Of a stretch of DNA of 32,000 nt, positions 6,619 through 24,798 are shown piece after piece (the first letter of the stretch is position 1; each line of letters starts with the position of its first letter). Location of the stretch: NCBI GenBank assembly GCA_022646745.1, contig CP060262.1, positions 3,780,001 to 3,812,000 on the forward strand, in the 5' to 3' direction. Below the pieces are notes generated by a model. The model worked only from the letters and a program-made list of their open reading frames with translations. It ran no database searches and had not been told where the DNA came from. The position numbers and the translations under genes were made by a program. The stretch is from Planctomycetales bacterium (GTDB lineage Bacteria; 4484-113; JAFGCY01).

Positions 6619-8148
6619 CTACTCCACCGAGATGATCTCGGTACCAGCCTTTCGGATCTCCCGCACCAAGGAAGCAAGCCCATCATCCAGTAGCTCAATC
6701 AGGACCTCCCCCTTGGACACCGTAACCGACTTCACCAGAAGTTTGGCAATCCGTTCCTGCTCACGTGGGAACAGGTTCTCCCAGATCCGGTCGAAAACCT
6801 GTAACTCATTGGCAACTTCGCCTTTGGTGATGGGAGCCAGTTCAATGCGGTTAAATTGAGCCTTAACTTCGTTAAGCTCAATCTCCAGCTGCTTCTCACG
6901 ACCGGATTTCCGGTCACCCTCGCCGGCCTTCAATGACCGAATCTGAGCCTCCAGCTGGGTCTTGCGGTGTTTGAGCACTTCCAGCATTTTGTCCCGCTCT
7001 GAATTCAGCTGCCTTAGTATGGTCAAGTAGATCTCGTCGGTCCTCAGCGCAACTCTGATCTGTTCGACGACGAGTGCTTCCAGCTGCTTTGCCGGCACTG
7101 ATGGATTAGGGCAGAAGCGGTAACCTCTGCTTCGTGCCGTACGGCAGACATATTCGTAGTACGCCCGCTCACGAGGTCCTGCGTACTTTGGGGACATGGG
7201 TTCGTTGCAGGCCTCACAGAATACTATGTGCTTCAGCAGAGCCTGTATCTCGCTGCGCTCGCGGCTCTGCTTAATGTGCCTGTTTTGATTCAGCATGCTC
7301 TGGACCTTCTCGAAAAGCTCCTTACTGACAATCGGCTCATGCAGTCCAGTAAACACTTCACCCGTCCGGTGGTACTCCTCCTCCCCAATGTATGTACGAT
7401 TGGCGAGTAGCCGCGAGATGTATGACAAGGTGAAGGGACCAGGATCATGATATGTACCATCACGCATTAACCATGTCTTTCGAGTCTTACCTTCGGCGTT
7501 AAGCTCGCGAAACAGTTCTCCTTTTTTGGGGTTATCCGCGAAGCGCTGGAAGATCTCCTTTACCAGCTTCGCTTCATCATTGTTGACTTCGTACTGCTTG
7601 GTGACCGGGTGAATGTCGTATCCAAGAATTGGCCGGCCTCCAGTACGAATTCTGCGCTGTCGCATGGAATATGCCTTGTCACGCTGGCGTTCGCATGTTT
7701 GATCTAGTTCGAACTCGGCAAATGAAAGTAGTACATTAATCATCAATCGGCCTGCCGCCGTAGACCCATCCAAGTCCTGTGTGACTGAGACTAGGTCAAC
7801 TTGGTTTGCTTCGAGCAAAGGATACACTCTTTGAAACTCAGCCATCCTGCGAGCAAAGCGGTCCAGCTTATATACGAGTAAGACGTCAAACTTGTGATCT
7901 TGAACATCCTGAAGCAGTTGCTTGAATTGAGGTCGGTTGTCACTTTTTGCGGAAACACCGGCCTCGCGGTATTCATGCACAAATTGCCAATTGCTCTCCT
8001 GCTTCTTGTCAATCGCCTTCAAGCACCGAGAGAGCTGGTTATCCAACGACGTAAACTCAGTCTTAAGCCCTTCTTCACTACTGACCCGTGTGTAAACGGC
8101 ACACCGTTTTTTGTCGTTGGAATCTGGTTTCTTCGAAAACATACTCAT
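6619..8148 (-). CDS. Large serine recombinase (resolvase/invertase N-domain + recombinase domain + Zn-ribbon + coiled coil).
   Basis: The N-terminal KRCAVYTRVSSEEGL carries the catalytic-serine signature. DRFARR and resolvase-type core motifs are present. The Zn-ribbon reads CEACNEPMSPKY..YEYVCRTARSRGYRFC. The C-terminus is a long charged helical region. Total length is 509 aa. Confidence 0.92.
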   Translation of the reverse strand: MSMFSKKPDSNDKKRCAVYTRVSSEEGLKTEFTSLDNQLSRCLKAIDKKQESNWQFVHEYREAGVSAKSDNRPQFKQLLQDVQDHKFDVLLVYKLDRFARRMAEFQRVYPLLEANQVDLVSVTQDLDGSTAAGRLMINVLLSFAEFELDQTCERQRDKAYSMRQRRIRTGGRPILGYDIHPVTKQYEVNNDEAKLVKEIFQRFADNPKKGELFRELNAEGKTRKTWLMRDGTYHDPGPFTLSYISRLLANRTYIGEEEYHRTGEVFTGLHEPIVSKELFEKVQSMLNQNRHIKQSRERSEIQALLKHIVFCEACNEPMSPKYAGPRERAYYEYVCRTARSRGYRFCPNPSVPAKQLEALVVEQIRVALRTDEIYLTILRQLNSERDKMLEVLKHRKTQLEAQIRSLKAGEGDRKSGREKQLEIELNEVKAQFNRIELAPITKGEVANELQVFDRIWENLFPREQERIAKLLVKSVTVSKGEVLIELLDDGLASLVREIRKAGTEIISVE

Positions 8149-9891: not shown

Positions 9892-11053
9892 TTGATTTCT
9901 TTGTCTCGAATAACATCCAATAATACAATTGAAGAATTGCGAGTGCATGCATTTCCTCCTATCATAACCTGGCAACGCACAACTAATAAAGATATGTCTT
10001 TCGAACTGCAGTTAATAGGCCAACCTCTTGACCAGCATGAACACTTGCCTCAGGGCACTTGACTCACACGGCGGTCGTCAAGAGCTTTTGGAGCACACTG
10101 CCTGAAATTCCCCCGAATTGCACCCATCTGACTGCCTGGGGATGTGATCGCGTCAAGTGCTTTGAGTGGTTGACCATCTAGTGCCCGGCCTTGTCCCCGG
10201 CAGCACGGGACGCATTGCATAGGGTGGAATTGCCGGTTACGCAGATGCCCGCGCACCCGCACTACTCGACAAGTACATTGGTGGGCCTTGCTCCACGAGC
10301 TTCGAACCTATTTCGAGGATAGCATGAATGACATGTAGAAAGTCAACTCCCTTGTCATTCAACTGCTTCTGATGGCTCGTATCTGTGCCTTCCACGAGAC
10401 CATGGCGGACGAGAGGAAACTTGAACCTCTTGCCTACGTGGACATCATGCATGCACCTGCTAGTCTCAGTACACTCACCTAGAATTCTCCGGTTCGTAGT
10501 GGTCCCAGGACGGCCTCTGAGGACCTGATTCCGTCCTGGTTTACCTATTCCTAAGGGTATTCTTAGGCTAGGAATAGGCAGTGCTTCACGTAAACCCGCT
10601 TCCAGACTGTGTAAACAGGCTGTTGCTCCCATCCAAAATGAACCCGACTCCGCCCCTCCCGCCGCCTGCATCACAAGCAGTCTCTGGTCGGGCTGGCGAG
10701 GCCGTGGAATACGGCCTTGAATTCGCCAGCACTTCGTGGCGGGTCGGCGGTGAATTCGCGCGGTAATGAGTACCGCGCGAGCCGACTGTGCGCGGGAGTT
10801 TTGGGTTGTTTGTTAGTTTTAGAATTTAGTTGGTTTGAAGGAATTGAATTGAATGAATGCTTGCCCACATCTCCACGGCACGGATACTCTTGCCAGCTTG
10901 CTACGAGATTATTCAGGTCTCTTCGCTGGCGCTGGCGCAACTGCCGTGGATATAACCGCCTGCCGGCTGACCGGCTGGCTTGGACAAGGAGTGGTTTAAC
11001 CTCGTGTAAAATTGTTATGCTGTGTCCTTTCTAAGGAATTGCTGACATCAAAA

Positions 11054-12409
11054 ATGCGCTTCATTGATCTATTTGCAGGCTTAGGTGGATTTAATCTCGC
11101 CCTGACATCGCTGGGACATGAGTGCGTGTTTGCGTGTGAAATTGAATCGCATCTTCAAGACTTGTACGAAGCAAACTTTGGTCTCCGGCCCGCTGGAGAT
11201 ATTCGGTCAAAAGGTCTTATTGCTTCAATTCCCGAGCACGACATACTTTGTGCTGGCTTCCCTTGTCAGCCCTTTTCCAAGGCTGGCGAACAGAATGGAC
11301 ATGATTGCCCTCAGTGGGGAGACCTTATTAACTACGTTCTCGAAATTCTAAGCACCCATCAACCAAGCTATGTGATCCTCGAAAACGTCCCCAACTTGGA
11401 GAAGCACAGAGGAGGTGAAACTTGGCGTCAACTAAAGAAAAGGCTTGAGCATTGGCGACGCGGATCTTTCACGATAGACAGTAGGATACTCTCACCTCAT
11501 TCCTTTGGAGTACCGCAAGTTCGTGATCGTATGTTTATAGTGGGCTCACGACATGGCTTGGAACACTTCAAATGGCCTTCAGGCGAAGGCTACCCAACTC
11601 CTGATCTGAAGTCTATCCTGGACACAAATCCACCCGAAGCAAAACCGCTATCAGCCGAAGCTATCCGCTGCTTGGATGTGTGGCAGGAGTTCTTGTCTGC
11701 TTTTCCCACATCAGAGGGGTTGCCATCCTTCCCAATATGGACAATGGAATTCGGCGCTGATTACCCATTTGAAAAACGTGCTCCATATTCTTATGGAAGA
11801 GCCTACTTGCAGAAATTTCGCGGATCATTTGGTCAACCGCTAACCTTACTGCCAGCCTCTCGTGTCATGGATGGTCTTCCACCTTATGCAAGACAAGCTG
11901 TTGACAAGTTTCCAGAGTGGAAAATCACTTTTATCAGGCAGAATCGTAGTTTCTATCAAAAACACCATTCTTGGTTAGATGACTGGCTTCCCAAGATACG
12001 TGAGTTTAACCCTAGCTATCAAAAGCTTGAATGGAACTGCAAGGGCTGCCCCCGAAAGATCTGGGACTATATCATTCAGTTTCGTCCATCAGGGGTTCGA
12101 GTCAAACGACCGAATACATCACCAAGCCTAGTGGCAATGACGACGAGTCAGGTGCCTGTTATTGGCTGGGAAAAACGCTTCATGACTCCACGTGAAGGAG
12201 CAAGACTCCAGAGCATGGATGAACTTAATCACTTGCCAGACGCTAGTACCCGTGCATACGAAGCTCTTGGCAATGCACTCAATGTGCAACTCGTCAGACT
12301 TATAGCGAAAGCGCTAGTACCCAGCGTTGATCAGCCCACAACAGTTACTGTGGGCGAGAACTCTGCAAAGGACTTGCCAATTAAGGTAGGAGAACGAGCT
12401 GCCCTATGA
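11054..12409 (+). CDS. DNA (cytosine-5)-methyltransferase.
   Basis: C5-MTase motifs appear in canonical order: I DLFAGLGGF, IV GFPCQPFS, VI LENVPNL, VIII GVPQVRDRMFIVG, then a long variable (target-recognition) region, then TPREGARLQS and GNALNV. The start is placed at the ATG 11054 (MRFIDLFAG), not the track start 11012. Confidence 0.92.
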   Translation: MRFIDLFAGLGGFNLALTSLGHECVFACEIESHLQDLYEANFGLRPAGDIRSKGLIASIPEHDILCAGFPCQPFSKAGEQNGHDCPQWGDLINYVLEILSTHQPSYVILENVPNLEKHRGGETWRQLKKRLEHWRRGSFTIDSRILSPHSFGVPQVRDRMFIVGSRHGLEHFKWPSGEGYPTPDLKSILDTNPPEAKPLSAEAIRCLDVWQEFLSAFPTSEGLPSFPIWTMEFGADYPFEKRAPYSYGRAYLQKFRGSFGQPLTLLPASRVMDGLPPYARQAVDKFPEWKITFIRQNRSFYQKHHSWLDDWLPKIREFNPSYQKLEWNCKGCPRKIWDYIIQFRPSGVRVKRPNTSPSLVAMTTSQVPVIGWEKRFMTPREGARLQSMDELNHLPDASTRAYEALGNALNVQLVRLIAKALVPSVDQPTTVTVGENSAKDLPIKVGERAAL

Positions 12410-13974
12410 ATGCTAGTCCACACGAAGATGTAGGTGGCACGGTTGGGATTCGACCCGGTGTCAGCATCTTGTCCGTGCTTCGACATCTCAACTATCGGCC
12501 TTGGTATGCCATAGCTGAATTCGTTGACAATTCACTCCAAAGCTATCTAGCACATAAATTAGCGCTGCAAGACGGAAGGCAAGCAATAGAAGCATTGCGA
12601 GTGGAAATCAGTCTTGAGAATGACCCTGAACCACGACTCGTAATTACCGACAACGCCGCTGGAATTTCCGCCCTCGATTTTCCAAGAGCATTTAGGCCAG
12701 CTGCAATTCCAACCGACACAAGCGGTCTGTCGGAATTTGGCATGGGAATGAAAAGTGCTGCCTGCTGGTTCTCACCTCGATGGATCGTCCGAACTAAAGC
12801 ACTTGGAGAACCAGTTGAGAGAATTGTGACATTCAACATTGCTCAGATCATTAAAGATGAGATTGAAGAACTGGCTATTGAAACTCGGCCTTCAAAACCA
12901 GAACATCACTTCACTGAGATTCAATTGTTGGATTTGCACGAACCTCCGCAGGGTAGGACAGTTGCAAAAATCAAGGAACACCTTGCAAGTATCTATCGTA
13001 TGTTCATCCGAAATGGTGAAATGAATATCTTCTACAAAGACAAAGAACTTAGCTTTGACAATGTGGGCATTCTAAATGCACCTTATTACAAAGAGCCGAG
13101 TTCTGATCCAGTTACTTGGTTCAAAAAAATAGACATGGATTTTGGGGCTGGTCATCGAGTAACAGGATTTGCCGCTTTGCGTGACCCAGGCAGCACTACT
13201 CATGCTGGTTTTGCGCTTTTCCGGCGCAACCGATTAATTCAAGGCAGTGCAGATGATGGCTATAGACCGTATCAAGTGTTTGGCGCTCCAAATAGATACC
13301 CGTACCAGCGTCTCTTCGGTGAACTGCATATGGAGGGATTCGAAGTTTCCCACACTAAAGATGGGTTCCGCTGGGACGATGGACTAGAGGATACTTTCCT
13401 TGAGCTGCTAAAGGAAGAGCTAAACAGCGCTCCACTTCCACTAATTACGCAAGCAGAGAATTTCCGAGCTCGGAAGTATAAAGCCGATTGGCGCTCTGGG
13501 GCTGAGAAGGCCGTTGCCAATACAGCAGATACCCTTGAAAAAGAGGCGATACCAGTCTTAGAAACGGAACGTGAGACACCCCCTTCAATTTCCGAGTTGC
13601 CTAGTGAGTTAGATGAACGCACATTGGTAACTAAGCAAGAACGCACGCTAGAATTCCGCAATGATACTTGGCAAGTCACTATTGAGCTTACTTCAGATGC
13701 AGCAGTTAGTGACTGGTTAGAGATTAGGAATAATGAACAACAACCGGTTACAGCTGATGGAAGAGTTGTCAGACACCTTGGAATTCGAATTTCTTTGGAG
13801 CACCCATTCATGCAGAGGTTTTGTGGGTTGTCATCCGATGAAATGGAACCATTGATTCGCTTGGCAGTTGGTATTGCTCTTTCCGAGGTTGTAGCTAGAG
13901 AAAGTGGTGTCCTTCAAGCGGGGACATTTCGCAGGGTATTGAATGACTTACTTGCCAACGCTCTAGCATTATAG
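12406..13974 (+). CDS. GHKL-superfamily ATPase (HATPase_c_3 / prokaryotic MORC-like).
   Basis: The Bergerat-fold boxes are present: AEFVDNSLQS (N box), ITDNAAGIS (G1) and SEFGMGMKSAACW (G2). There is an ATGA stop/start overlap with the methyltransferase at 12406-12409. Confidence 0.85.
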   Translation: MNASPHEDVGGTVGIRPGVSILSVLRHLNYRPWYAIAEFVDNSLQSYLAHKLALQDGRQAIEALRVEISLENDPEPRLVITDNAAGISALDFPRAFRPAAIPTDTSGLSEFGMGMKSAACWFSPRWIVRTKALGEPVERIVTFNIAQIIKDEIEELAIETRPSKPEHHFTEIQLLDLHEPPQGRTVAKIKEHLASIYRMFIRNGEMNIFYKDKELSFDNVGILNAPYYKEPSSDPVTWFKKIDMDFGAGHRVTGFAALRDPGSTTHAGFALFRRNRLIQGSADDGYRPYQVFGAPNRYPYQRLFGELHMEGFEVSHTKDGFRWDDGLEDTFLELLKEELNSAPLPLITQAENFRARKYKADWRSGAEKAVANTADTLEKEAIPVLETERETPPSISELPSELDERTLVTKQERTLEFRNDTWQVTIELTSDAAVSDWLEIRNNEQQPVTADGRVVRHLGIRISLEHPFMQRFCGLSSDEMEPLIRLAVGIALSEVVARESGVLQAGTFRRVLNDLLANALAL

Positions 13975-13983
13975 GAACTTACA

Positions 13984-16185
13984 GTGGATAACGATGTTAT
14001 AGAGGTAATTGAGGAGCAGCCAAGCCCATACTCCAAATGGTCACCTAGACAGGGGCGAAACACCCTTGCATTATTGGCGCGACTGTTTCCAGAGGATCAG
14101 TCTGCACGTGAGAGATTGGCACAGGAAGCAACTTCCGTCTTATCCTGCTGTATACCTCCTACGCAGTCTGATGGCGTGGACACGGGATTAGTTATTGGAT
14201 ACGTACAGAGTGGCAAAACCGCCAACTTTACCACCATTGCTGCATTGGCAGCGGATAACGGTTACAAACTAGTCATAGTGATTTCAGGCGTAGTAAGAAA
14301 CTTATTCAATCAATCCTGTGACAGGCTTCGGGATGACCTTGGTGTAGCTGAAGGCAATCGAGGTTGGTTATATCTACAGAATCCTACTCGTGCTCGAGAT
14401 GCAGCATCATTGCGAGCTGCGCTCACATCTAGACCACTAGCAGGAATTGAGCCTAGAACCACTTTGATAGTAACTCTAAAACACACTTCTCACATTCGAA
14501 ATCTCACGAACCTTCTGGCTAGCATTGGTGAGAATTCAATACCAACCTTGATAATTGATGATGAAGCTGACCAGGCTAGCTTGAACAATCGTGTAAGGCA
14601 GGGGGACGTTAGTGCAACATATCGCAGTATTGGTCAGTTGCGAGCAACGTTGCGCCAGCATACTTTCTTACAATTCACGGCCACGCCGCAAGCCCCTTTG
14701 CTCATTAGCATTTTAGATGTCTTGTCTCCGTCGTTTGTAGAGCTTCTAACGCCAGGCGACGAATATGCTGGAGGCAGGACATTTTTCGAAGACGAACGAC
14801 AGGCAAGGCTCATAAGAGAAATCCCGCCTTCTGATATTTCGACAAGAAATAATCTTCTGACGAGCCCTCCTCGAAGTTTACTCAGCGCTTTGGAGTTTTT
14901 TTACATAGGAGTTGCAGTTGGAATTTTCAGGGGCGAGCAAGCTTACAAGAACAGATCAATGTTGGTTCACCCAGACAAGAGTACTTCATCACACGCTCAG
15001 TATGCTAGATGGATTCTATCTACTCAGGAGGAATGGCGACGAATTCTTGAAGCTCAGGATACTGATGCTGACAGAATAGAGAGATTATCATTGTTCGAAC
15101 GAGCTTTCAACGATCTGCTCAATACAGGTATGGAATCGCCACCTTTCTCGGAATTGATTCCATATATTCAGTCCGCACTTGCAATCACGCAGGTTTGCCA
15201 AGTAAATTCAACACCTGCCAACCTTGAACCGCAATGGCGACAAGAATATTCCTGGATCGTGGTTGGAGGTGACAAGATCAATCGCGGCTACACCGTTGAG
15301 GGACTTACAGTAACATACATGCCTCGCGGGATTGGTGGCAGCAATGCTGACACAATCCAACAACGGGCACGATGGTTTGGTTATAAAGCATCATACCTTG
15401 GATTTTGCAGGGTCTATCTGACCCAAAACGTACGGCAAGCATATGTGGATTATGTAGAACATGAGGAAAGTGTCCGTAGAGCGCTTCACCAGCATCGGCA
15501 ACAGCGCTTGAGCGTACGCGATTGGAAGCGATTATTCCTGTTGTCAGCGAATTTACGTCCAACGCGTGATCAGGTAATCGACAGTCCGTACTTCCGAGGT
15601 GGACAGCCAAATTCTTGGTTCAAGATTTCTACTCCTCTTTACGACATTCAAACTACAGACCAAAACAGAGATGCTGTCAACAATTTGCTTAACAGCCTTG
15701 ATTTAACAGAACTAAGTGGAGATCCCCGCAGAACCAAAATGCAAACGCCCAAAGTTGGCAGATTATCAATGACTGAAATTCTCGAAGGGTTTTTTGCTGA
15801 GCTTACGTGGCCTGATCCAAGCGATGCCCTCCAATTCAATGGAATACTGTTCCAGATTGGCAACTTCCTTGATACCAATGCAGATGAAGACGTAGTAGTA
15901 TATGAAATGGCAAACGGCAAAAGTAGAATGCGCCCGGTCAATGCGCAAGGTCGAATCACATCCAACCTTCACCAAGGTGAAAATCCTCCCTCAAGAGGTG
16001 ACCAAATCAGTCGAGGCGAAGTCTATCCAGGTGACGTTGCCATCAGGGACAGCAATCAGCTTTCAATTCAGATTCATTGGCTTGATCTAGAACAGAATAA
16101 AGTCAATGTTGCACGTCGTGTTCCGGCTCTCGCGATTTGGCTTCCGAGGAGAATAGCGAGAAGTTGGGTCGCACAGAATCAGTAA
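13984..16185 (+). CDS. Z1-domain P-loop NTPase.
   Basis: Walker A is GYVQSGKTANFT and Walker B is TLIIDDEADQASLN, followed by FTATPQA. This is the pattern I associate with Z1-domain proteins. It has a GTG start 9 nt after the preceding stop, with AGGA upstream. Confidence 0.8.
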   Translation: MDNDVIEVIEEQPSPYSKWSPRQGRNTLALLARLFPEDQSARERLAQEATSVLSCCIPPTQSDGVDTGLVIGYVQSGKTANFTTIAALAADNGYKLVIVISGVVRNLFNQSCDRLRDDLGVAEGNRGWLYLQNPTRARDAASLRAALTSRPLAGIEPRTTLIVTLKHTSHIRNLTNLLASIGENSIPTLIIDDEADQASLNNRVRQGDVSATYRSIGQLRATLRQHTFLQFTATPQAPLLISILDVLSPSFVELLTPGDEYAGGRTFFEDERQARLIREIPPSDISTRNNLLTSPPRSLLSALEFFYIGVAVGIFRGEQAYKNRSMLVHPDKSTSSHAQYARWILSTQEEWRRILEAQDTDADRIERLSLFERAFNDLLNTGMESPPFSELIPYIQSALAITQVCQVNSTPANLEPQWRQEYSWIVVGGDKINRGYTVEGLTVTYMPRGIGGSNADTIQQRARWFGYKASYLGFCRVYLTQNVRQAYVDYVEHEESVRRALHQHRQQRLSVRDWKRLFLLSANLRPTRDQVIDSPYFRGGQPNSWFKISTPLYDIQTTDQNRDAVNNLLNSLDLTELSGDPRRTKMQTPKVGRLSMTEILEGFFAELTWPDPSDALQFNGILFQIGNFLDTNADEDVVVYEMANGKSRMRPVNAQGRITSNLHQGENPPSRGDQISRGEVYPGDVAIRDSNQLSIQIHWLDLEQNKVNVARRVPALAIWLPRRIARSWVAQNQ

Positions 16186-16203
16186 AGGTCTCCGGGGTCT
16201 TCC

Positions 16204-17220
16204 GTGCAACTTAATTTCTATGATAGATTTTTGGAATTGAAACCACCAGAGTCCTCGCACACTTCTTCATCGTATTCTGTGATTGAGTTACCAGATATTC
16301 CAGACATTCGTATTGGCAAGAGCCGGGATCTCAAACCAGCGATTCTGATTAATCTCTCTCTTCAATCAGAATTGTCAACTCCAGTGCCACCTATCAGACT
16401 TCGCCATATTGAGATTTACTCTAATTCACTCTGCCGCATACATTTACAGAATGGTGCAACCAGTGAAGAGAGACTTGCCTTAGTAGTTTGTCGTTCTGAT
16501 GACATCCAGCTTCAGTCTTATTTCCTAACAGTTCTTCCGATGATATTCGCAACTCACTTCGAAGCACAAGCTAATGACAATATAAATTCTGCCTTGTCTT
16601 CAGTTGCAGAATTGTTCAAGTTGATCGAAGAGCCGCCTCACAAATCAGTGCAAGCAATATGGTCTGAGCTACTTCTCATTGAGAGATCGAGCGATCCCTC
16701 TCGAATGTTGTCTGCCTGGAGAAATGGAGTCCATGATAAATACGACTTTTCAGATGGGATGAACAGACTAGAAGTAAAGTCCTCATCTCGTGGAGTAAGA
16801 ATTCACACGTTTAGTCTTGACCAACTCATGGCTCCACCCGATGTGACAGTCGTCATTGCTTCACTGTTAGTGAGAGAACTAGCAGGTGGAAGCTCAATAC
16901 GAAACTTGGTCAATGGGATCAGAAAGAAATGCTCTGACCCAACACTTTTGCTGAAGTTGGAAACTGTCATAACAAGAACGCTAGGAGCTTCCACTCCACA
17001 GGCTATTGAGGTTACGTTCGATCTGCCATTCGCCTTGGATGAGTTGCGTTACTACAATGCAACAATAATACCTGCTGTGAATCCTCCAATTCCAGGAGGT
17101 GTAAGCAATGTGCGTTTTGATTCTGACTTGGCATTTTGCTCTGTCTTAGTCCCATCAGCACTGTCTAACGACGAGAATTGTTTAACATCATTACTTACTA
17201 AGCCCAACAATATTATCTAG
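16204..17220 (+). CDS. PD-(D/E)xK motif protein (DUF4420-like predicted nuclease).
   Basis: DKYDFSDGMNRLEVKSSS gives a D..(E)xK nuclease core. The gene lies immediately after the Z1 gene, as in the recurrent dcm/HATPase/Z1/DUF4420 clusters. It has a GTG start and no in-frame ATG near the N-terminus. Confidence 0.7.
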   Translation: MQLNFYDRFLELKPPESSHTSSSYSVIELPDIPDIRIGKSRDLKPAILINLSLQSELSTPVPPIRLRHIEIYSNSLCRIHLQNGATSEERLALVVCRSDDIQLQSYFLTVLPMIFATHFEAQANDNINSALSSVAELFKLIEEPPHKSVQAIWSELLLIERSSDPSRMLSAWRNGVHDKYDFSDGMNRLEVKSSSRGVRIHTFSLDQLMAPPDVTVVIASLLVRELAGGSSIRNLVNGIRKKCSDPTLLLKLETVITRTLGASTPQAIEVTFDLPFALDELRYYNATIIPAVNPPIPGGVSNVRFDSDLAFCSVLVPSALSNDENCLTSLLTKPNNII

Positions 17221-17905
17221 CTTGTTGAGTTTCAGCCCAAAGACCGCCCCAGAAACCAACTTCTAAAGCGATCATATCATGCGTCCCCAACTTGACTAAC
17301 TCCTGGTTTTCTGAAGTCTCAACCCAAGGGGCAATGGCTCTCATAATGTCTGAGTAGTGATCATCGTCCCATTCTGCATGTACAAGCCAGAATTCCACAT
17401 CCTTTTCTGTCAACCCCCTTTTCATTAGCCCTTCTGCAATTAATTTGTACTCGGGTGCCGTAAAATACTCGGTACCTGGTCCAAGCGCTCCTAGACCCGT
17501 TAGGAAATGCGTGTCACGACAAACAGAAATCATTTTCTCTACGTAACCTAGGGTTAATGTTGTCGGAATATAGGTGTTTAACTCATCTACTGATACGCCA
17601 ACAGAATGTGCGAAACGCTTGAATAGATTTCTGTGCGAATTGCTGATATCACCACTTCCATGCTCTTCCCAAAGGTTGGTGATTAATATAGAGCGAGTTT
17701 CATCATCGGGAACGTTTGCCGCCACAAATGCAACACCCTTAACAAAACTTGTAGAAACGAAGTAGTATTCCCGAGTAAAAAACTTAAGAGCCTCTGAAGA
17801 GAGTTCGTTTCTATTTATTGCTTTTATAAAAGGATGATCAATTATGTCTCTGGATAGATTCGTTGCATACTCTTCTAGCTCTATCACAAACTCTTGCGCA
17901 TTCAT
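17213..17905 (-). CDS. Heme-oxygenase-like di-iron / iron-containing redox enzyme family protein (CADD/PqqC-like fold).
   Basis: LKFFTREYYFVSTSF..ITNLWEEHGSGD..SHRNLFKRFAHSVG..EFWLVHAEWDDDHYSD supplies the Glu/His ligand pattern typical of CADD/PqqC-type helical di-iron proteins. There is a 6-nt gap after the ALDH gene. Its stop overlaps the convergent DUF4420 gene by 8 nt. Confidence 0.75.
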   Translation of the reverse strand: MNAQEFVIELEEYATNLSRDIIDHPFIKAINRNELSSEALKFFTREYYFVSTSFVKGVAFVAANVPDDETRSILITNLWEEHGSGDISNSHRNLFKRFAHSVGVSVDELNTYIPTTLTLGYVEKMISVCRDTHFLTGLGALGPGTEYFTAPEYKLIAEGLMKRGLTEKDVEFWLVHAEWDDDHYSDIMRAIAPWVETSENQELVKLGTHDMIALEVGFWGGLWAETQQAR

Positions 17906-17911
17906 GCCTCA

Positions 17912-19411
17912 TTATCCTCCTTGAGACTCAGAATAAGGGAACCACCAATCGCGCTTTGCTTCAGTAGTTAACTCCAATGAAATATGCTTTGGACGGCAAT
18001 ACTGCCTGATTGCATGCTGTGAAAGCTCAAATCCAACTCCACTTTGCTTAGTTCCACCCCAAGCTGCCTGTGGGAACGCCACGTTGATGTCATTTATCCA
18101 GACCATCCCAACTTCTAGCTTTCTTGCCACGCTCTCAGCCAACGATAAATTAGAACTCCACACTGAAGCCCCAAGGCCATAATTGCTAGAATTGGACTTT
18201 ATAACTGCTTCATCAATAGTATCGAAGACATTTATAGGCATTACGGGTCCGAAACACTCCTCAGTCATAATACGCGACGTTTCAGGAACATCTGAAAGAA
18301 TTGTTGGAATATAGAAATTTCCATCTAAGCTCAGATTCTGACTTCCCCCATGTAATAACTCTGCACCGTTAGTAATGGCATCAGCAACAAAGTCTTTTAC
18401 AGAGTCCATTTGCTTGCCTGATATCAGAGGACCAATATCAACTCCTAGCCTAAGTTGAGCAGTCTTCTCAACAGCGGACTTAATAAACTCTTGTGCAATA
18501 CTGCGATGTACAAAAACTCGCTTCGGCCTGACACAAACTTGACCTGCATTGCAGAACGCCCCCCAAACTAGCCCATTTGTTGCTAATTCCACATCAGCAT
18601 CAGCCAACACTATTGCTGCGTCATTTCCACTAAGTTCTAGGTTGTACTTACAAAGTCGAGATGCACAATGTGACGCGATCTCAAGTCCCACTGGCACACT
18701 ACCGGTGAAGCTAACTACATTAACTCCAGGATGTCTGGCCAATACAGCGCCTGTTGTGCCGTCTCCGAGAACCATGTTGACAACACCTGGTGGAAAACCA
18801 GCCAACTCAAACAATCCAACGAGAAAACTTGCAGTTTCGGAGGAGTGCTCCGACGGTTTCAGAATTACGGTATTCCCTGCAACCAATGCAGGGCCAATAG
18901 ACCAAACAATCAATTCCAATGGGTAATTCCAAGCCTTGATTAAGGCTACTACTCCGAGAGGCTCCCACTGGTGCTTACTTTTCTTACTCGGCCAGATAGT
19001 TTCATCTAATTCAAGAATTTCATCCGTAATTTCACTTTCGGCAACCTGCACCATGTACCTAAACATGTCTACACTTTCCATCACTTCTATATCTGCTTCA
19101 GCAAAAACTTTGCCCACTTCTCTTGTGATCAACTTCTTCAAATCTGTTCTTTCAGAGGGAGACACAAATTGCTCATCAAGCAAATCTGCCACCTTATCCA
19201 AGTAGGAACACCGTTCGACAACCGATAGGGATTGCCACGCAGGAAGAGCTGCCTTTGCGGCGGCGACAGCCTCGTTAATCTCAATTAAACCGCCTATTGG
19301 GAGCTGTGACTTGGGCTCTCCACCTCCTGGCAGTTCGATCTGAACCCAATCAACCTCTGTACCCGAGGTCCAATTGCTATTGATAAAATGGCGTAGATGC
19401 TTGCGTTGCAT
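17912..19411 (-). CDS. NAD(P)-dependent aldehyde dehydrogenase family protein.
   Basis: ALDH signatures are present: LELSGNDAAIV (general-base Glu motif), FCNAGQVCV (catalytic Cys), EECFGPVMP and GTKQSGVG. Length is 499 aa. Confidence 0.9.
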   Translation of the reverse strand: MQRKHLRHFINSNWTSGTEVDWVQIELPGGGEPKSQLPIGGLIEINEAVAAAKAALPAWQSLSVVERCSYLDKVADLLDEQFVSPSERTDLKKLITREVGKVFAEADIEVMESVDMFRYMVQVAESEITDEILELDETIWPSKKSKHQWEPLGVVALIKAWNYPLELIVWSIGPALVAGNTVILKPSEHSSETASFLVGLFELAGFPPGVVNMVLGDGTTGAVLARHPGVNVVSFTGSVPVGLEIASHCASRLCKYNLELSGNDAAIVLADADVELATNGLVWGAFCNAGQVCVRPKRVFVHRSIAQEFIKSAVEKTAQLRLGVDIGPLISGKQMDSVKDFVADAITNGAELLHGGSQNLSLDGNFYIPTILSDVPETSRIMTEECFGPVMPINVFDTIDEAVIKSNSSNYGLGASVWSSNLSLAESVARKLEVGMVWINDINVAFPQAAWGGTKQSGVGFELSQHAIRQYCRPKHISLELTTEAKRDWWFPYSESQGG

Positions 19412-19417
19412 ACTGCT

Positions 19418-19423
19418 ATTATA
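19418..19423 (-). promoter_or_regulatory. Perfect -10 hexamer positioned for a leaderless ALDH mRNA.
   Basis: The minus strand reads TATAAT (19423-19418), then 6 nt (agcagt), then the ATG at 19411. There is no SD and the -35 is weak. Confidence 0.3.
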
Positions 19424-19495
19424 CTGTATGTGCCCACCGAAGGCGAGTAAGCCTCTTCACGCTTCGGAGGTTAGTTGTAATAATTGGTGATAGAT

Positions 19496-22270
19496 ATGTC
19501 AAATGTCAGAAAATTGGCGCACATCCTACACTTGTCTGATATTCAGTTTGGAAAATTTCATCGATTTCCAAATGGTTCAAATCGTGTTCAAAGCCATCAA
19601 GACTTAGATACAACGCCTTTATCTGAACGATTAGTCGAAGATATTGAGAAATTATCAAGTGTGTACAATATTCAGCCAAACTTTCTGATCTTAAGCGGCG
19701 ATGTAGCTGAATGGGGTCTTATGCGTGAGTTTGAAATGTGCAAACACCTTATTGAGGCACTAATCGCGTCCAGCTCGACAGATCTTCAGCCTGAACGAGT
19801 GATTATAGTACCAGGTAATCACGACATCAACAGAGACCTGTGTCAAGCATATTTTCTTGAATGCAAGGCAAATCAAGCCGAACCTGAACTACCTTATTTG
19901 CCAAAGTTCAGGTTCTATGATAACTTTGTAAACTCTGCTCCATCATTCTTTTCATCAGCAACCGGTGATAGAAATCCAGTAGTTTCTAATTACATACAGG
20001 ATTTTGGCCTTATTGTCACGGCATTCAACTCTTGTCTTAAAGAAAGTCATAAGCCTGAAGATCATGTTGGCTATATCGGTAGGCAGAATGTCCGACAAGC
20101 CATTAAAAAGATACAAGAGTTAGATCGAGAACATCAAGCGATTCGGATTGCTGTTCTTCATCATAATGTTATTAGGAATAGTGGAGAAGATAATCAGCAC
20201 CTTATAGACTGGAACGAGGTTCGAAGAGATATGTTATCTACATTCGATATCATTCTTCATGGTCACCGTCATCATGCTGAGCACCAGATATTGCAACTCC
20301 CTCAATCTCACCACGTTCTCATCTCTGGTGCCGGTAGTGTTGGACTATCTTTGAATCAAACATCAGGTATTCAAAATCATTATCAGCTAATTTCTATAGA
20401 ACAGGATATTGCAACTATTAGGGGACGTACTTACGAACTGCGTGGGGCAAGAGCAAACGAAACCTATGGGGAATTTACTGCCAAATTTGAGCAGGGATCG
20501 GAAGTCGTCGAAGTGAAACTGCGTAACTCCTTATCAGCGAACACCACTTCACAGGCAAGTTCAACAATTGATATCAGAGAATATTTAAACAACTCTAGTA
20601 AGTCTTTGCAAAGCGTAATTGAAAGGTCTTTAGACAGGATTGGCTCACACATTCCGTTGGAATGTGATTTGATATTATCAGGTGGCAAACGACAAGATCC
20701 TAGTGGTTCATTTAGTCTAGAAGAGTATTTTAACGATTGGTTAGGCAACACAAGCAATAGGCTTATATTGATTGCGGGTGCGGGCGGTGGAAAAACAACC
20801 TTTGCAGTCAATGCTGCCAAGCTACTTTCTACCAACTATTTAGATACCAATTCGGGAATTATTCCCATATACATAGATTTAAGTCTCTATAATTCTGAAG
20901 AGAGCATACTATCTATATTACTGGCAAATTTCAGAAGTAAGAGAGTGTCTTGTACCACTGAGGCAGTAAAAGAAGTGCTCGCAACACAAGAGATACTTCT
21001 CTTTTTAGATGCATTTGATGAGTACGATATTGGTCCAACATCAGCTTCATTCATCCGTGAGTTCATTGATTTCCATGAAATAGAAAAACCAAATATTAAA
21101 ATTGTAATCGGTTGTCGAGACAATCACTTCAGGAGTGTTGAAGATATACTAGTTCGTGAATCACGGCAAGGATTTCAATTGTGCCCTGTTTACGCTACAG
21201 TGATTAAATTGAAACCATTATCTTATGAGATAATCAATGAAGTACTCTCGCCATTATTGGGTGAACATAAAGTTTCAACCTGGATATATGATGTTGTATC
21301 CAATCCCTTGACCCTAAAGATGGTGGTATCCCTTCTAAAGTCTGGCAGCATTCAACCTGCCAATTTGTCAACATCTCAATTGACTCGTCATGAGTTGTAT
21401 GAGCAATTCATTACAAATATGATAAATTGGGATTTGCGGAAAAAAACTGCCCCCCATCTTCTTGATCAAAGGAAAATCAGAAAAGTGCTCATTCGAATTG
21501 CTGAAGTGCTGTTGGATCGTGGAGAAGCTTCACTTATGTTAGATCATTTCGACATAGTCGTCGAAGCTGAACTTGGCAAAGAAATTGCATCGAGTGAAAT
21601 CCAATTCCTACATGAACTGGCTGTTCTAGGATATGAAGGGGGAAGAATAAAATTCGTACATAAAGCTTATCGCGAATACTTGTATGCTAGAAAGATTGCC
21701 AATGATATTGCCATTGATGAGCGAGATTTTCAACTTCATTGGTTTACTCGGAATGAACGACACTTCATTGTAGAAATGTTAAGTGAGACAGAGATAGAAA
21801 CATTGTTTGACTGGTTGTCTGACCACGGCAACTGTCCTGCTAGTAACTATGCTGCGTTTATTCTGGGAGGAGTTGCTAAATCCAATGTTGAATCAGCCCT
21901 TAGAATGGCTCTCAACCGGTCGGACGACCCATTGTTAAAAATTAACTGCTGTAACTCATTAGCAGGTCTTGGAGTTTCAGACATATGCTCTCAGTTATTG
22001 GGAGCTGTTGCTGGTCATGCATTGGAGGAGGGGTTAATTGATCAAATGCCTGAACAAGGTTCTGAGGAATCAAAGGATTGGTTTAAAGAATTGCAGATAA
22101 AGTATGAGCGACGTTCTGTAATGATTTTACACTTATGTGAAATGATCGAAGCATTAGGTTTTTGTGGTTTGGACTTGTGTAAAAATGTGTTGGACTGTTT
22201 AAAGCTACACGAAAATCAATTGGTTCGAGAGGAAGTAAAATCGACCTCCAATAAGCTGTTAAATTGCTAG
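19496..22270 (+). CDS. STAND NTPase with an N-terminal calcineurin-like metallophosphoesterase, a central NACHT-type P-loop and C-terminal HEAT-like repeats.
   Basis: MPE motifs are HLSDIQFG, SGDVAEWG, VPGNHD, VLHHN and LHGHRHH. The NACHT part has Walker A LIAGAGGGKTTFA (~20776-20799) and Walker B ILLFLDAFDEY. HEAT-like repeats read AAFILGGVAKSNVESALRMALNRSDDPLLKINCCNSLAGLG..VREEV. The ATG at 19496 with GGTGA 5 nt upstream is preferred over the TTG at 19484. Confidence 0.85.
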   Translation: MSNVRKLAHILHLSDIQFGKFHRFPNGSNRVQSHQDLDTTPLSERLVEDIEKLSSVYNIQPNFLILSGDVAEWGLMREFEMCKHLIEALIASSSTDLQPERVIIVPGNHDINRDLCQAYFLECKANQAEPELPYLPKFRFYDNFVNSAPSFFSSATGDRNPVVSNYIQDFGLIVTAFNSCLKESHKPEDHVGYIGRQNVRQAIKKIQELDREHQAIRIAVLHHNVIRNSGEDNQHLIDWNEVRRDMLSTFDIILHGHRHHAEHQILQLPQSHHVLISGAGSVGLSLNQTSGIQNHYQLISIEQDIATIRGRTYELRGARANETYGEFTAKFEQGSEVVEVKLRNSLSANTTSQASSTIDIREYLNNSSKSLQSVIERSLDRIGSHIPLECDLILSGGKRQDPSGSFSLEEYFNDWLGNTSNRLILIAGAGGGKTTFAVNAAKLLSTNYLDTNSGIIPIYIDLSLYNSEESILSILLANFRSKRVSCTTEAVKEVLATQEILLFLDAFDEYDIGPTSASFIREFIDFHEIEKPNIKIVIGCRDNHFRSVEDILVRESRQGFQLCPVYATVIKLKPLSYEIINEVLSPLLGEHKVSTWIYDVVSNPLTLKMVVSLLKSGSIQPANLSTSQLTRHELYEQFITNMINWDLRKKTAPHLLDQRKIRKVLIRIAEVLLDRGEASLMLDHFDIVVEAELGKEIASSEIQFLHELAVLGYEGGRIKFVHKAYREYLYARKIANDIAIDERDFQLHWFTRNERHFIVEMLSETEIETLFDWLSDHGNCPASNYAAFILGGVAKSNVESALRMALNRSDDPLLKINCCNSLAGLGVSDICSQLLGAVAGHALEEGLIDQMPEQGSEESKDWFKELQIKYERRSVMILHLCEMIEALGFCGLDLCKNVLDCLKLHENQLVREEVKSTSNKLLNC

Positions 22271-22599
22271 CGGACATCCATTGTGAAAGAACACGAAGGA
22301 CAATCTATATGCTTCGGGTGATGCAGACACTTAGGACAACGACCGTAGTAATTACCAGGGCGAGAGTATCCGCATTCACACTTCCAAGCCCCCAACAGTT
22401 CTATTGTATGCCCGCAGAAGCGACAAACCAAATGTTCATGTGCCAGTTGCCGGAACCGGCGAGTAGCTGGAACCCTCATGCAGATGTAGTCATACAGGTA
22501 TAGAAAGAAGCGAGACCACAGGATTCCAGACGCAATTTCCCAGAAAGACTTGAGCCCCTTCTGGGCTTCCTGCACTCCATGTTGAATCGGATCAGCCAT
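22267..22599 (-). CDS. Small Cys-rich (4x CxxC-type) double zinc-ribbon protein with a hydrophobic N-terminal segment.
   Basis: The Cys pairs are CRFCGH..CECGY..CPKC..CPSC. The ATG at 22599 is preceded by GAGG at 8-nt spacing. It overlaps the Replic_Relax stop by 8 nt. Confidence 0.6.
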   Translation of the reverse strand: MADPIQHGVQEAQKGLKSFWEIASGILWSRFFLYLYDYICMRVPATRRFRQLAHEHLVCRFCGHTIELLGAWKCECGYSRPGNYYGRCPKCLHHPKHIDCPSCSFTMDVR

Positions 22600-23554
22600 T
22601 GTCAAACCTCAGTGCATCCAGCAGACTCAAGCGTTTGATATCAGTAATCTCGGCCTGCTTTAGCACCTGCTCATTGCGTAACCTGTACAGGTCAGTCCCA
22701 CGCACCCACAGCTTGGCTAGTGCGGAGTCTGGTGCAATCCCATCAAAGGTCGTAAACCAATACCCACGCCTGCCGCCAGAGGCGACTGTTTTTTCCGCGA
22801 TGGAGACCAGCCGCTTCTCGCTGGTGGTTACGGTTAGCAGTATAGCCCAGTGTGAATGCCACTTGGCTTCCAATTGCGCACTTTGCGTAAATTCTCGATA
22901 GACCTCTACCTTTTCCTGCCAGCGTCCGGTGGACATAGTACCCCGATCAACCTCAATGAAGTACACGCCATGCTCTCCCTCTGGTGGTTGCAGAAGTAGA
23001 ATCGCATCTGGGATGACTGACTTGTTGCGCCGGTGGCCGTCCTTGTCCATGAGCTGGACTGTCAGCTTGTGTTGCTTTGGATCTCCGCGAATGATGAGGA
23101 AGTCCTTCAGTTCGCCCTGGCTCTTGGCTCTGGTCAGTGCATGCTGGTACGAGATGAGCATGTCATTGATAGCAAGCAGGTGCTGGATATGAGTCGGTTG
23201 AACCTTGTTGAGATACCTGTTCCACTTTATTTGCTTGCGGTCTACGCCGTCATGTTCAGCCAGAAGGCCAGCACCTTTCTCGGTCATGGCATAAATCAAC
23301 CCTTCCTGTGAGGAAGAGACTGGGAGCTGGATTCTGTCGAGGTAGCCGTGATGGTAGAGATAGCGTAGGCGGACAGTCAGGTTCTTCTCGCTCGAATCAG
23401 GAAACAGCCACCAGACCTGCCGGGTGGAGAGGAATCGGTTTGAAAGCACTGCATGGAGTATCTCAAAGTCCCGCTCCACCAATGTGAAGCGAGGCGGATT
23501 CTTTGCCCGCTTTGTTCTCGGCAACCTTTTATCATTAGGTTTTTCTGGTGACAT
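22592..23554 (-). CDS. Replication-relaxation (Replic_Relax) family protein.
   Basis: The N-terminal wHTH-like region reads FTLVERDFEILHAVLSNRFLSTRQVWWLFP..LTVRLRYLYHHGYLDR..IYAMTEKGAGLL. It is followed by IPDAILLL..VYFIEVDRGT, typical of this plasmid/ICE family as I recall it. Confidence 0.75.
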   Translation of the reverse strand: MSPEKPNDKRLPRTKRAKNPPRFTLVERDFEILHAVLSNRFLSTRQVWWLFPDSSEKNLTVRLRYLYHHGYLDRIQLPVSSSQEGLIYAMTEKGAGLLAEHDGVDRKQIKWNRYLNKVQPTHIQHLLAINDMLISYQHALTRAKSQGELKDFLIIRGDPKQHKLTVQLMDKDGHRRNKSVIPDAILLLQPPEGEHGVYFIEVDRGTMSTGRWQEKVEVYREFTQSAQLEAKWHSHWAILLTVTTSEKRLVSIAEKTVASGGRRGYWFTTFDGIAPDSALAKLWVRGTDLYRLRNEQVLKQAEITDIKRLSLLDALRFDNG

Positions 23555-23577: not shown

Positions 23578-24798
23578 CTATCGCCAGACCCTTGCAGATG
23601 AAGCATCAAAATAGTGAAGATTCATACCTACTTCTCGTTTTGTGCCTTTTGCCGAGCCAGAACTTTGTCTTAGTCTATAATTCTGCGCGGCGCGTTTCTG
23701 GTTGAGTAACTCTCGAAGTGAAGCTATTCTATTTGCTTCATGAATGATTTGTTGATTCTCTGGAGCATTGCAGTCTCCATACAACCCGATAAACAACTCC
23801 TTGATTCGTCCATAAGCAATTGCATGTCTGATATGCTCATCATTGTCTTTGAAGGCTACTCCATAAGCAAACAATGACCCCGCTGCTTTGTTGCAGAAAC
23901 TTGAGAACGACCGAGCTAGATATGCATTGTGCAGGATTCTCTCACGCTTCTGTTCGTATTCTCCTTCACTCACTATAACGGGGTACTCTCCGTCAGCTAG
24001 CGCAGATGTTATCTGCGTGTGCAACGGCACATGTGTGCGACTCCAAGTTAACTTCTTGACTCTTTGCCCAGTATCAAACAAGTGTAAAGCCCCATGCAGG
24101 TACACAATGTCACAATCGTGACTACTTCCTAAATCCCACTCAACATAGTTCGTGTCTCCTTCTTCAGGTTCTCTGAATCCATCTCTGCAATTCAATCGTC
24201 CCTCTGCTTTCATGTATGTCCAGTAAAGCAGTAAGTCATAATTCAGAGAATATTTTGTGCCATTAAAATTTCCCAAAAAGCTTATACAACTTTCGTATTC
24301 TGTATCTTTGATATCAGTCGGCAGCGCTGGGTGTCTTTGAGTAATAGTATCTACTAGAATCCTCTGTAAGTTCTTTTCGTCTTCTTTTAGTTTGTTGACA
24401 AGCAACAGATTGGCTGGTTCATATAATTCAACTAGCTGGGCAGCATTCCTGATGTTGCGCATAACTACTTCAAAGTCAGTGGTATTCAATTCGTCAAAAG
24501 TCTTGCGTAACTCACCCTGAAGCTTCCCTGATTCAGTTGCTTCATCAAGTAGAGACCCATAATTAAACAGTTTGGGATTAAGAGCAAGACTGAACCCATT
24601 CCCCATTAGCAAATGTCTCTTGCCTTTGGATTCAGCGATATTCAACGCATTCTCAAATGACAGCACTTTCACTGATTCATTCATAGTCTTAAAAAGACTA
24701 GCATAAGCTAAGCCAGCCCGTCTTATGACCGGCTGACCTGCTTGCAGTAATCCTATGGGAATAACTTGAGCGCGGAATGCTCGCTTAAGCCTCATCAT
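23578..24798 (-). CDS. DUF4917 family protein (SIR2-like Rossmann fold, putative NAD-binding/NADase).
   Basis: LLMGNGFSLA, SLNYDLLLYW and VYLHGALHLF recapitulate the GxGxS / NYD / HG triad of SIR2-like domains and the DUF4917 pattern. The long start (24798) forms an ATGA overlap with the upstream gene. An alternative ATG at 24684 (MNESVKV) would give 368 aa. Confidence 0.75.
   Translation of the reverse strand: MMRLKRAFRAQVIPIGLLQAGQPVIRRAGLAYASLFKTMNESVKVLSFENALNIAESKGKRHLLMGNGFSLALNPKLFNYGSLLDEATESGKLQGELRKTFDELNTTDFEVVMRNIRNAAQLVELYEPANLLLVNKLKEDEKNLQRILVDTITQRHPALPTDIKDTEYESCISFLGNFNGTKYSLNYDLLLYWTYMKAEGRLNCRDGFREPEEGDTNYVEWDLGSSHDCDIVYLHGALHLFDTGQRVKKLTWSRTHVPLHTQITSALADGEYPVIVSEGEYEQKRERILHNAYLARSFSSFCNKAAGSLFAYGVAFKDNDEHIRHAIAYGRIKELFIGLYGDCNAPENQQIIHEANRIASLRELLNQKRAAQNYRLRQSSGSAKGTKREVGMNLHYFDASSARVWR

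Follow-up and report, generated by a model that had tools for sequence, protein, structure and literature searches.

Introduction

Anti-phage defence proteins that join a phosphoesterase to a NACHT ATPase have only recently been validated. DS-8 of Escherichia coli (WP_032203427.1) is a metallophosphatase-NACHT protein that works against phages as a single protein; defence was lost with D52A, N84A or K375A, showing that the metallophosphoesterase (MPE) ligands and the Walker A lysine are needed (DeWeirdt et al., Science 2026, PMC13092281). DS-9 has been studied as PUA-Cal-HAD, with a phosphoesterase effector of the 'Calcineurin-CE' type: HAD converts dNTP to dNDP, Cal then converts dNDP to dNMP and in vitro also cleaves NAD+ into NMN plus AMP, and the outcome is dNTP depletion and abortive infection (bioRxiv 10.64898/2026.01.15.699771). 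Here we analysed a 32,000-nucleotide stretch from a Planctomycetales bacterium (contig CP060262.1, positions 3,780,001 to 3,812,000; hereafter the window), in which one gene encodes a 924-aa STAND protein with an MPE domain, a NACHT domain and HEAT-like repeats, and its divergent neighbour encodes an aldehyde dehydrogenase (ALDH). An earlier description of the locus, made from the letters alone (the sequence-only reading), knew of no characterised example with an MPE effector, which is out of date given DS-8 and PUA-Cal-HAD. The phosphoesterase-NACHT kind is itself already known; new here is a STAND lineage that stands constantly beside a rare defence-island ALDH, through gene rearrangements and effector swaps. 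Our literature search returned no paper tying an aldehyde dehydrogenase to defence islands, and the DefensePredictor tables held no aldehyde dehydrogenase.

Domain architecture and described relatives

The STAND protein consists of an MPE fold, a complete NACHT ATPase and a short HEAT-like solenoid (Table 1). This layout, already proposed by the sequence-only reading, was borne out by Pfam, by structure prediction and by fold and profile matches. Alignment with orthologues favoured the ATG at 19496 as start codon over an upstream TTG. In single-sequence Pfam scans Metallophos matched aa 9-260 (E 6e-10, 40.3 bits vs a gathering threshold of 21.5); NACHT (19.4 vs 26.7 bits, E 1e-3), HEAT_2 (weak, E 0.012) and NPHP3_N were found below threshold only. 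A search of the PDB with the single sequence also gave marginal matches only, and a profile was needed. The AlphaFold2 model, built from a 60-sequence alignment, reached a mean pLDDT of 88 and a pTM of 0.73. Its N-terminal part took an MPE fold, as expected by the earlier reading, and resembled Rv0805 (Foldseek TM 0.75, E 1e-9), Lmo2642 and GpdQ; its central part resembled the NACHT modules of NLRC4 (4e-11), NOD2, NLRP3 and NLRP9 (E 1e-11 to 1e-8). Sequence profile searches agreed (Rv0805 4e-17, NLRC4 5e-15). The C-terminal part, aa 742-924, matched alphaRep/HEAT profiles (6e-26 to 1e-7), the HEAT repeat protein 6veh (5e-9) and deoxyhypusine hydroxylase (3e-5), and the model placed ten paired helices across aa 752-923. 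The NACHT motif set was complete, with sensor-1 R541, NPLTL at 603-607 and His722 all present, and the NPLTL and His722 residues of the helical and winged-helix part were invariant across 10 homologues of the NACHT-HEAT chassis.

Among models of known defence proteins, the best-scoring domain relative was the Cal phosphoesterase of DS-9 (NCBIfam DS9_1, E 1.6e-26, 93 bits, model positions 195-478, that is, the Cal domain only). The Calcineurin-CE family was reportedly defined by Nicastro and colleagues in NAR in 2023. We judged closeness to this family by the DS9_1 score vs that of generic Pfam Metallophos (6e-10); by this measure the N-terminus is a putative Calcineurin-CE conflict effector, predicted to be a phosphoesterase with two metals. 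DS8_antiphage (NF053861) matched with E 9e-22 and 76.6 bits, aligned over aa 54-517 only, and the PADLOC candidate PDC-S60, a generic 'Effector', with E 3e-14 over model positions 3-512 of 1,027. Other PADLOC matches, to GajB and PDC-M36B, were weak. Because all scores lay far below the member cut-offs, the STAND protein is a distant relative and not a member of a named system, and DS-8 and DS-9 phosphoesterases are, as judged from these alignments, its distant relatives.

Like DS-8, the protein is a single polypeptide of about 1,000 aa in which a NACHT ATPase comes after an N-terminal metallophosphatase. The C-terminal halves do not align, a DS-8 relative keeps D-x-H in the first MPE motif, and no ALDH partner has been reported for DS-8, which acts on its own. 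The DS-8 model also scored above its cut-off in a Bacteroides thetaiotaomicron control genome, so the DS-8 family extends beyond Enterobacteria. PUA-Cal-HAD shares the effector role of its phosphoesterase in an anti-phage system, but uses a PUA-like sensor, a filament instead of a NACHT oligomer, and a HAD phosphatase instead of an ALDH as partner, and its motif I is D207-x-H209. Membership in DS-9A/PUA-Cal (NF053862) does not apply, as the window protein is without a PUA domain and without a nearby HAD gene. With NACHT NLRs (nucleotide-binding leucine-rich repeat proteins, such as NLRC4, NOD2 and NLRP3) and with bNACHT and Avs it shares the NACHT fold and motifs, the logic of effector, NTPase and repeats, and the swapping of effectors on a common chassis (here MPE or Mrr); it differs in repeats that are HEAT-like, not leucine-rich or TPR, and in a constant enzyme neighbour. 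The class III cyclic-nucleotide phosphodiesterases and glycerophosphodiesterases Rv0805, GpdQ and Lmo2642 are the closest solved folds (TM up to 0.75), with ligands aligned one-to-one, yet these are single-domain housekeeping enzymes with His in motif I and 15-18% identity. The earlier reading had proposed a phosphodiesterase or nuclease of the SbcD/CpdA superfamily. Among characterised chemistries the nearest is not SbcD-type nuclease action but hydrolysis of nucleotide pyrophosphate or phosphate bonds (dNDP to dNMP, NAD+ to NMN and AMP). SbcD/Mre11 nuclease was rejected as the closest analogy, with a match (E 1e-6) far below those to cyclic-nucleotide and phosphodiesterase folds and to DS-9 Cal.

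A conserved aldehyde dehydrogenase beside the STAND gene

Full-length orthologues of the STAND protein were few and 31-39% identical in protein sequence. An ALDH of 489-499 aa lay within 3 kb at 7/7 informative orthologue loci, in three gene orders, and is probably not the unrelated neighbour that it had been taken for; loci were counted as informative where flanking DNA was sufficient, and L092 was too short to count. At L002, L003/L004, L005 (a Dehalococcoidia metagenome-assembled genome), L086 and L087 the ALDH gene was directly upstream of the STAND gene in the same orientation, separated from it by 2-34 nt. The STAND gene was followed by a gene for a ~290-aa protein in L002, L004 and L005, and then by one for a B12-binding radical SAM protein in L002 and L005; the sequence of L003 stops within the 290-aa gene, and those of L086 and L087 stop shortly after the STAND gene. 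In L091 the order was STAND, a 105-aa open reading frame (ORF), a 502-aa protein, ALDH, the 290-aa protein and the radical SAM enzyme. In the window the ALDH gene is divergent from the STAND gene at 84 bp and is followed by a gene for a haem-oxygenase-like di-iron oxidase (HDO), and neither the 290-aa gene nor the radical SAM gene was found in this genome. The 290-aa protein gave a poor model (pLDDT 62) with weak TIM-barrel matches (E at least 3e-3), and the best match of the radical SAM protein was to C-methyltransferases of ribosomally synthesised and post-translationally modified peptides (RiPPs; 6e-42, below cut-off). A word-based search with the C-terminal region of the STAND protein added one further orthologue only, identical to the L005 protein. 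Downstream of the L005 operon were genes for a TIR protein and for a nuclease-TPR protein, the latter truncated by the end of the locus and at least 1,119 aa long, and downstream of the L091 operon was a second, separate metallophosphoesterase gene.

At about 150 other loci with a D-x-Q phosphoesterase on other chassis no such ALDH was present, so the ALDH link is to the NACHT-HEAT chassis and not to the effector. Trees of both proteins were then compared. The ALDHs of L002, L003, L005, L086 and L087 formed one clade (support 0.999), and those of the window, L091 and L172 fell elsewhere in the ALDH tree, the window ALDH clustering with the HDO-linked ALDH of L174. In the STAND tree the window protein fell between the L002 group and L086 (support 0.78-0.89). 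The disagreement between the two trees suggests that the window lineage exchanged its ALDH for another yet retained the adjacency. From the STAND side, the evidence argues for a link between ALDH and the NLR chassis.

A rare ALDH subfamily in defence islands

The STAND-linked ALDHs were 44-51% identical to one another. Of 123 subfamily members, 122 ended in a C-terminal WW[F/Y]PY tail and all 123 kept the catalytic Asn, Lys, Glu and Cys, so by these residues the subfamily is predicted to be catalytically intact. It occurred in 2 of ~1,225 species genomes from four phyla (~0.2%, with only three candidates per genome scored in the large genome samples), and one of the 2 was already known; the genome samples from three large phyla yielded just one ALDH locus that was new. 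A scan of IMG/VR for the subfamily returned generic ALDHs only, at 34% identity or less.

Seven further ALDH loci (L088, L089, L090, L171, L172, L173 and L174) were picked by ALDH similarity alone, and all seven were surrounded by defence or mobile-element genes. L088, on a mobile element, carries a 521-aa protein, ALDH and a pyruvoyl decarboxylase (PvlArgDC); L089 has ALDH beside Hachiman; L090 has a 503-aa protein, ALDH and HDO between a type ISP restriction-modification (R-M) system and SIR2-HerA; in L171 ALDH is accompanied by PvlArgDC, with a MORC-like ATPase and GmrSD nearby; L173 has ALDH near Shedu; and L174 has a 463-aa protein, ALDH and HDO beside an integrase and DruA. The ALDH-HDO pair of the window thus recurs in L090 and L174, and PvlArgDC is also present at L185. 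In L172, Kiwa and ALDH are followed by an Mrr_cat-NACHT-HEAT protein, 94 nt downstream of the WWFPY-tail ALDH. This protein shows homology with the window protein over aa 414-921 of the latter (28% identity, E 2e-53), including the HEAT domain and an invariant WFTRxER motif; by sequence homology it is the same NACHT-HEAT chassis, here too next to ALDH, but with its phosphoesterase exchanged for an Mrr nuclease. Kiwa and a cluster of ubiquitin-like (Multi_ubiq/E2/ThiF) and TIR genes flank it.

Two further families adjoin these ALDHs (Table 1). Members of a ~500-aa family, found directly upstream of the ALDH in L088, L090, L091 and L185 (the WWYPY-tail ALDH in L088, L090 and L185), are 37-58% identical, have two predicted C-terminal membrane helices and gave no significant Pfam match (best E 0.013, below threshold); within an ALDH-centred module the family could serve as a membrane effector. 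In a ~370-aa family with no Pfam domain on record, the proteins of three loci are 62-80% identical to one another, and their identity to the 463-aa L174 protein is 27-31%. Among ALDHs with known neighbours, the tail read WWFPY in 8/8 NACHT-linked proteins and WWYPY in 8/8 with other partners. L185, which came from a later independent genome search and is counted among the latter, fits this rule; a further 17 ALDHs also carry the Phe tail, and on the ALDH tree this residue has roughly a dozen separate origins.

Proposed function and alternative explanations

The explanation that we favour, and hold to be rather probable, is an NLR-like (STAND) anti-phage protein within a small imported HDO-ALDH-STAND module at 17213-22270. 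The immune reading is supported by the defence island, the low GC content, the absence in relatives, the homology to DS-8 and PUA-Cal, and the effector swap to Mrr. The NLR-like immune sensor of the sequence-only reading is thereby supported in its immune part but not as a lone sensor, given the constant ALDH neighbour; the module is probably multi-gene. At rest the protein would be an ADP-bound, autoinhibited monomer, and an infection cue would be read through the HEAT domain. ATP-dependent oligomerisation of NACHT would follow, bringing the phosphoesterase domains together and switching them on. The active enzyme would by analogy hydrolyse nucleotides (dNDP/dNTP, NAD+ or a signalling nucleotide), and phage replication would collapse in an abortive infection. 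ALDH would be the functional partner of the NACHT-HEAT chassis, either supplying or removing a small-molecule ligand or being itself the protein watched by HEAT, and the tie between them could run via a metabolite or via direct contact with the ALDH tail. The di-iron oxidase, the pyruvoyl decarboxylase, and the radical SAM enzyme with the possible TIM-barrel protein might take part in the synthesis or conversion of small molecules that carry an amine or an aldehyde. If ALDH does supply the ligand or is guarded, this would be a rare bacterial NLR input traceable from the genome alone, and aldehyde metabolism would join the chemistry of anti-phage immunity.

Several points weigh against this explanation. 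The protein matched none of the Avs1-5 or bNACHT models of PADLOC v2 and missed the DS-8 and DS-9 family cut-offs by far (77 vs 790 bits and 93 vs 420 bits). The suggested nucleotide substrate of the MPE domain comes by analogy with PUA-Cal only, and no characterised D-x-Q member was found in the literature. As 5/7 of the ALDH-linked loci belong to one ALDH clade, the associations amount to about 4 independent ones and not seven. Since relatives of the ALDH are also found where there is no NACHT protein, any dependence could run in one direction only.

A wider possibility, which we put forward tentatively, takes ALDH as the constant part: the rare WW[F/Y]PY-tail subfamily would be the core of undescribed defence-island systems with interchangeable outputs and accessories. 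Outputs may be NACHT-HEAT with phosphoesterase or Mrr, the ~500-aa two-helix membrane protein or the ~370-aa family, and accessories may be the di-iron oxidase, the pyruvoyl decarboxylase, or the B12-radical SAM enzyme with the ~290-aa protein. The signal sensed by HEAT may be an aldehyde or acid metabolite, or ALDH itself via its C-terminal tail.

It is unlikely that the STAND protein is a stand-alone, single-gene NLR like DS-8, with the ALDH and di-iron oxidase as unrelated island cargo. DS-8 does work as a single protein (PMC13092281), the ALDH subfamily is without a NACHT partner in L088, L089, L090, L171, L173, L174 and L185, and in the window ALDH and STAND are divergent and not co-transcribed. 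Against this, the ALDH is adjacent at every informative locus, across orthologues of such low identity and in three gene orders. The same rare ALDH also stands beside the effector-swapped chassis member of L172, the F/Y residue of its tail covaries with partner type, and it is present in so few of the sampled genomes.

We consider still less probable a non-immune role, as regulator or participant, in small-molecule or RiPP-like biosynthesis, with the phosphoesterase acting on a pathway intermediate. Tailoring enzymes are typically of the kinds seen here (ALDH, B12-radical SAM, di-iron oxidase and pyruvoyl decarboxylase), the radical SAM protein comes nearest to RiPP C-methyltransferases, the HDO resembles BesC/CADD, and PvlArgDC occurs in L088, L171 and L185; apart from a weak PDC-M51A match, none of the partners matches a known defence model. 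Against such a role, every locus examined lies among defence or mobile genes (Hachiman, Kiwa, SIR2-HerA, Shedu, GmrSD, Druantia, type ISP R-M, TIR), and that an Mrr nuclease can take the place of the phosphoesterase is what one expects of an immune effector, not of a step in biosynthesis. Fusions of the MPE clade to TIR, trypsin, CHAT, HipA_N, WD40 and TPR sensors occur as well, and the protein is homologous to validated defence proteins.

The glutamine variant of motif I

In a test of five MPE motifs, four were canonical and motif I read D-x-Q instead of D-x-H, with the Gln codon exactly where the sequence-only reading had placed it. One metal ligand is indeed substituted: in the profile alignment Q17 falls on metal ligand His23 of Rv0805, and GD, GNHD, HH and GHxH align one-to-one. 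The variant had been presented as atypical of this one protein, but a survey of homologues showed it to be a trait of the clade. The closest 45 of the 120 homologues listed in a first search nearly all read HLSDxQF, regardless of architecture, and HLSDxHF was the state of the more distant ones among these 120; homologues were fused to STAND, TPR, WD40, TIR, CHAT, HipA_N or trypsin domains. At E 1e-3, 1e-10 and 1e-30, an exhaustive search with the domain only gave 3,051, 725 and 190 representatives of clusters, respectively. Of the best 150 domain matches, 137 were not in the earlier set, and 122 of these 137 had Gln. Across 262 aligned related domains motif I had Gln in 175 and His in 81, and D15, D69, N108, H222, H223, H257 and H259 were conserved at 95% or more in both groups. 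The Gln group also showed an extra signature (H22 in QFGxxHRF, E72, K137, E183-S184-H185, H190 and N224). In a tree computed without the Gln/His column of motif I, the two states switched about 17 times; their codons are one third-position transversion apart.

The repeated switching together with conservation of the other ligands points to Gln17 as a functional ligand and not a lesion. By these comparisons Gln17 is a variant ligand state that prevails in a large effector clade, the site not being lost, and Gln is probably tolerated and functional as a ligand. Most likely it still ligates the first metal via its amide oxygen, and perhaps it shifts metal preference. A private degenerative mutation was rejected in view of the clade-wide Gln and the ~17 switches. 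Glutamine is a natural metal ligand in E. coli 5'-nucleotidase UshA, which also belongs to the MPE superfamily. His is retained in motif I of both characterised relatives (D207/H209 in PUA-Cal, D-x-H in a DS-8 relative); the DS-8 relative, at 744 bits near the cut-off, begins MKCAIVHISDLH and has the canonical motif in HISDLH. It is very improbable that the domain is an inactivated phosphoesterase serving only as scaffold or ligand-binding module, as the exchanged ligand and the His of both characterised relatives might suggest, because dead enzymes rarely keep their remaining ligands as the 175 D-x-Q domains do, Gln and His interchange inside the clade, and UshA uses Gln naturally. Being a trait of the whole clade, D-x-Q is by itself only modestly interesting, and the ALDH-NLR partnership and the ALDH-centred modules are more surprising; as a natural His-to-Gln change it lends itself to probing how conflict-effector phosphoesterases use their metals and catalyse their reactions.

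Four proteins of 661-702 aa (P0131, P0132, P0133 and P0135) carry two tandem phosphoesterase domains each. Domain 1 usually has D-x-H, with one D-x-Y, and domain 2 has D-x-Q in 3/4 and D-x-H in P0131.

Genomic context of the module

Table 1 Positions of the features in the window and, where a locus is named, at homologous loci
Feature	Position	Strand	Remarks
DruE-like helicase, 1,636 aa	20-4930		MrfA Zn-binding domain; cut by window start; PADLOC DruE1 2e-85
Large serine recombinase	6619-8148		
Dcm-MORC-Z1-DUF4420 cassette	11012-17220		
Haem-oxygenase-like di-iron oxidase (HDO)	17213-17905	-	CADD/BesC-like; 6 nt downstream of ALDH; optional accessory
Aldehyde dehydrogenase (ALDH)	17912-19411	-	Rare WW[F/Y]PY-tail subfamily, here WWFPY; conserved STAND partner
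Divergent intergenic region, ALDH to STAND	19412-19495	n/a	84 bp
MPE(D-x-Q)-NACHT-HEAT STAND protein, 924 aa	19496-22270	+	Stop codon 22268-22270; ORF intact
MPE domain, aa 8-341	19517-20518	+	Calcineurin-like, predicted 'Calcineurin-CE' type; Pfam Metallophos, NCBIfam DS9_1, fold
Motif I, D15-I16-Q17	19538-19546	+	Gln codon CAG at 19544-19546; S14-D15-I16-Q17-F18 encoded by 19535-19549
Motif II, G68-D69	19697-19702	+	Bridging Asp; invariant in 60 sequences
Motif III, G107-N108-H109-D110	19814-19825	+	Invariant in alignment
Motif IV, H222-H223	20159-20164	+	Invariant; aligned with LHHP of Rv0805
Motif V, G256-H257-R258-H259	20261-20272	+	Homologue alignments and Rv0805 profile alignment
NACHT nucleotide-binding domain, aa 420-545	20753-21130	+	Pfam, fold, profile
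Walker A, GAGGGKTT, aa 428-435	20777-20800	+	K433
Walker B, LLFLDAFDEY, aa 501-510	20996-21025	+	
Helical and winged-helix domains of NACHT module, aa 546-741	21131-21718	+	NLRC4/NOD2/NLRP3 fold and profile matches run through here
Winged-helix His722	21659-21661	+	Conserved
HEAT-like repeat domain, aa 742-924	21719-22267	+	Presumed sensor or partner-binding part; alphaRep/HEAT profile matches
Replic_Relax	22592-23554		
DUF4917 / PDC-S21	23578-24798		
Mrr_cat-NACHT-HEAT protein	L172:8567-10666		
~500-aa family	L088:5383-6948		Directly upstream of WWYPY-tail ALDH
~500-aa family	L090:5477-6988		Directly upstream of WWYPY-tail ALDH
~500-aa family	L091:8318-9826		Further member
~500-aa family	L185:9905-11401	-	Further member
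~370-aa family, ALDH-adjacent	L089:5157-6269	-	
~370-aa family, ALDH-adjacent	L171:9124-10236	-	
~370-aa family, ALDH-adjacent	L173:5806-6948		
~370-aa family, ALDH-adjacent	L174:1316-2707		
TIR protein	L005:8347-8793		Downstream of operon
Nuclease-TPR protein, at least 1,119 aa	L005:9924-13280		Downstream of operon; off locus end
Second metallophosphoesterase gene	L091:14714-15466		Downstream of operon

The STAND gene is surrounded by genes of defence and mobility (Table 1). It was not found in 18 relatives, and neither it nor ALDH was found in the other 21 species genomes of the phylum that were examined. GC content was 39% in the STAND gene, 45.5% in ALDH and 42% in HDO, and 61% in the genome. 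These results support the view of the STAND gene as imported cargo of low GC content within a defence island. Sites resembling promoters or terminators were no more frequent in our scans than in shuffled sequence. Around HDO-ALDH-STAND there is no space for terminators, because the convergent genes overlap at their stop codons. The block is wedged between its neighbours, with convergent stop overlaps at both ends, of 8 nt between HDO and DUF4420 (17213-17220) and of 4 nt between STAND and a 112-aa ORF (22267-22270). The GC content of the window genes ranged from 39% to 59%, which places the defence island far below the 61% of the genome.

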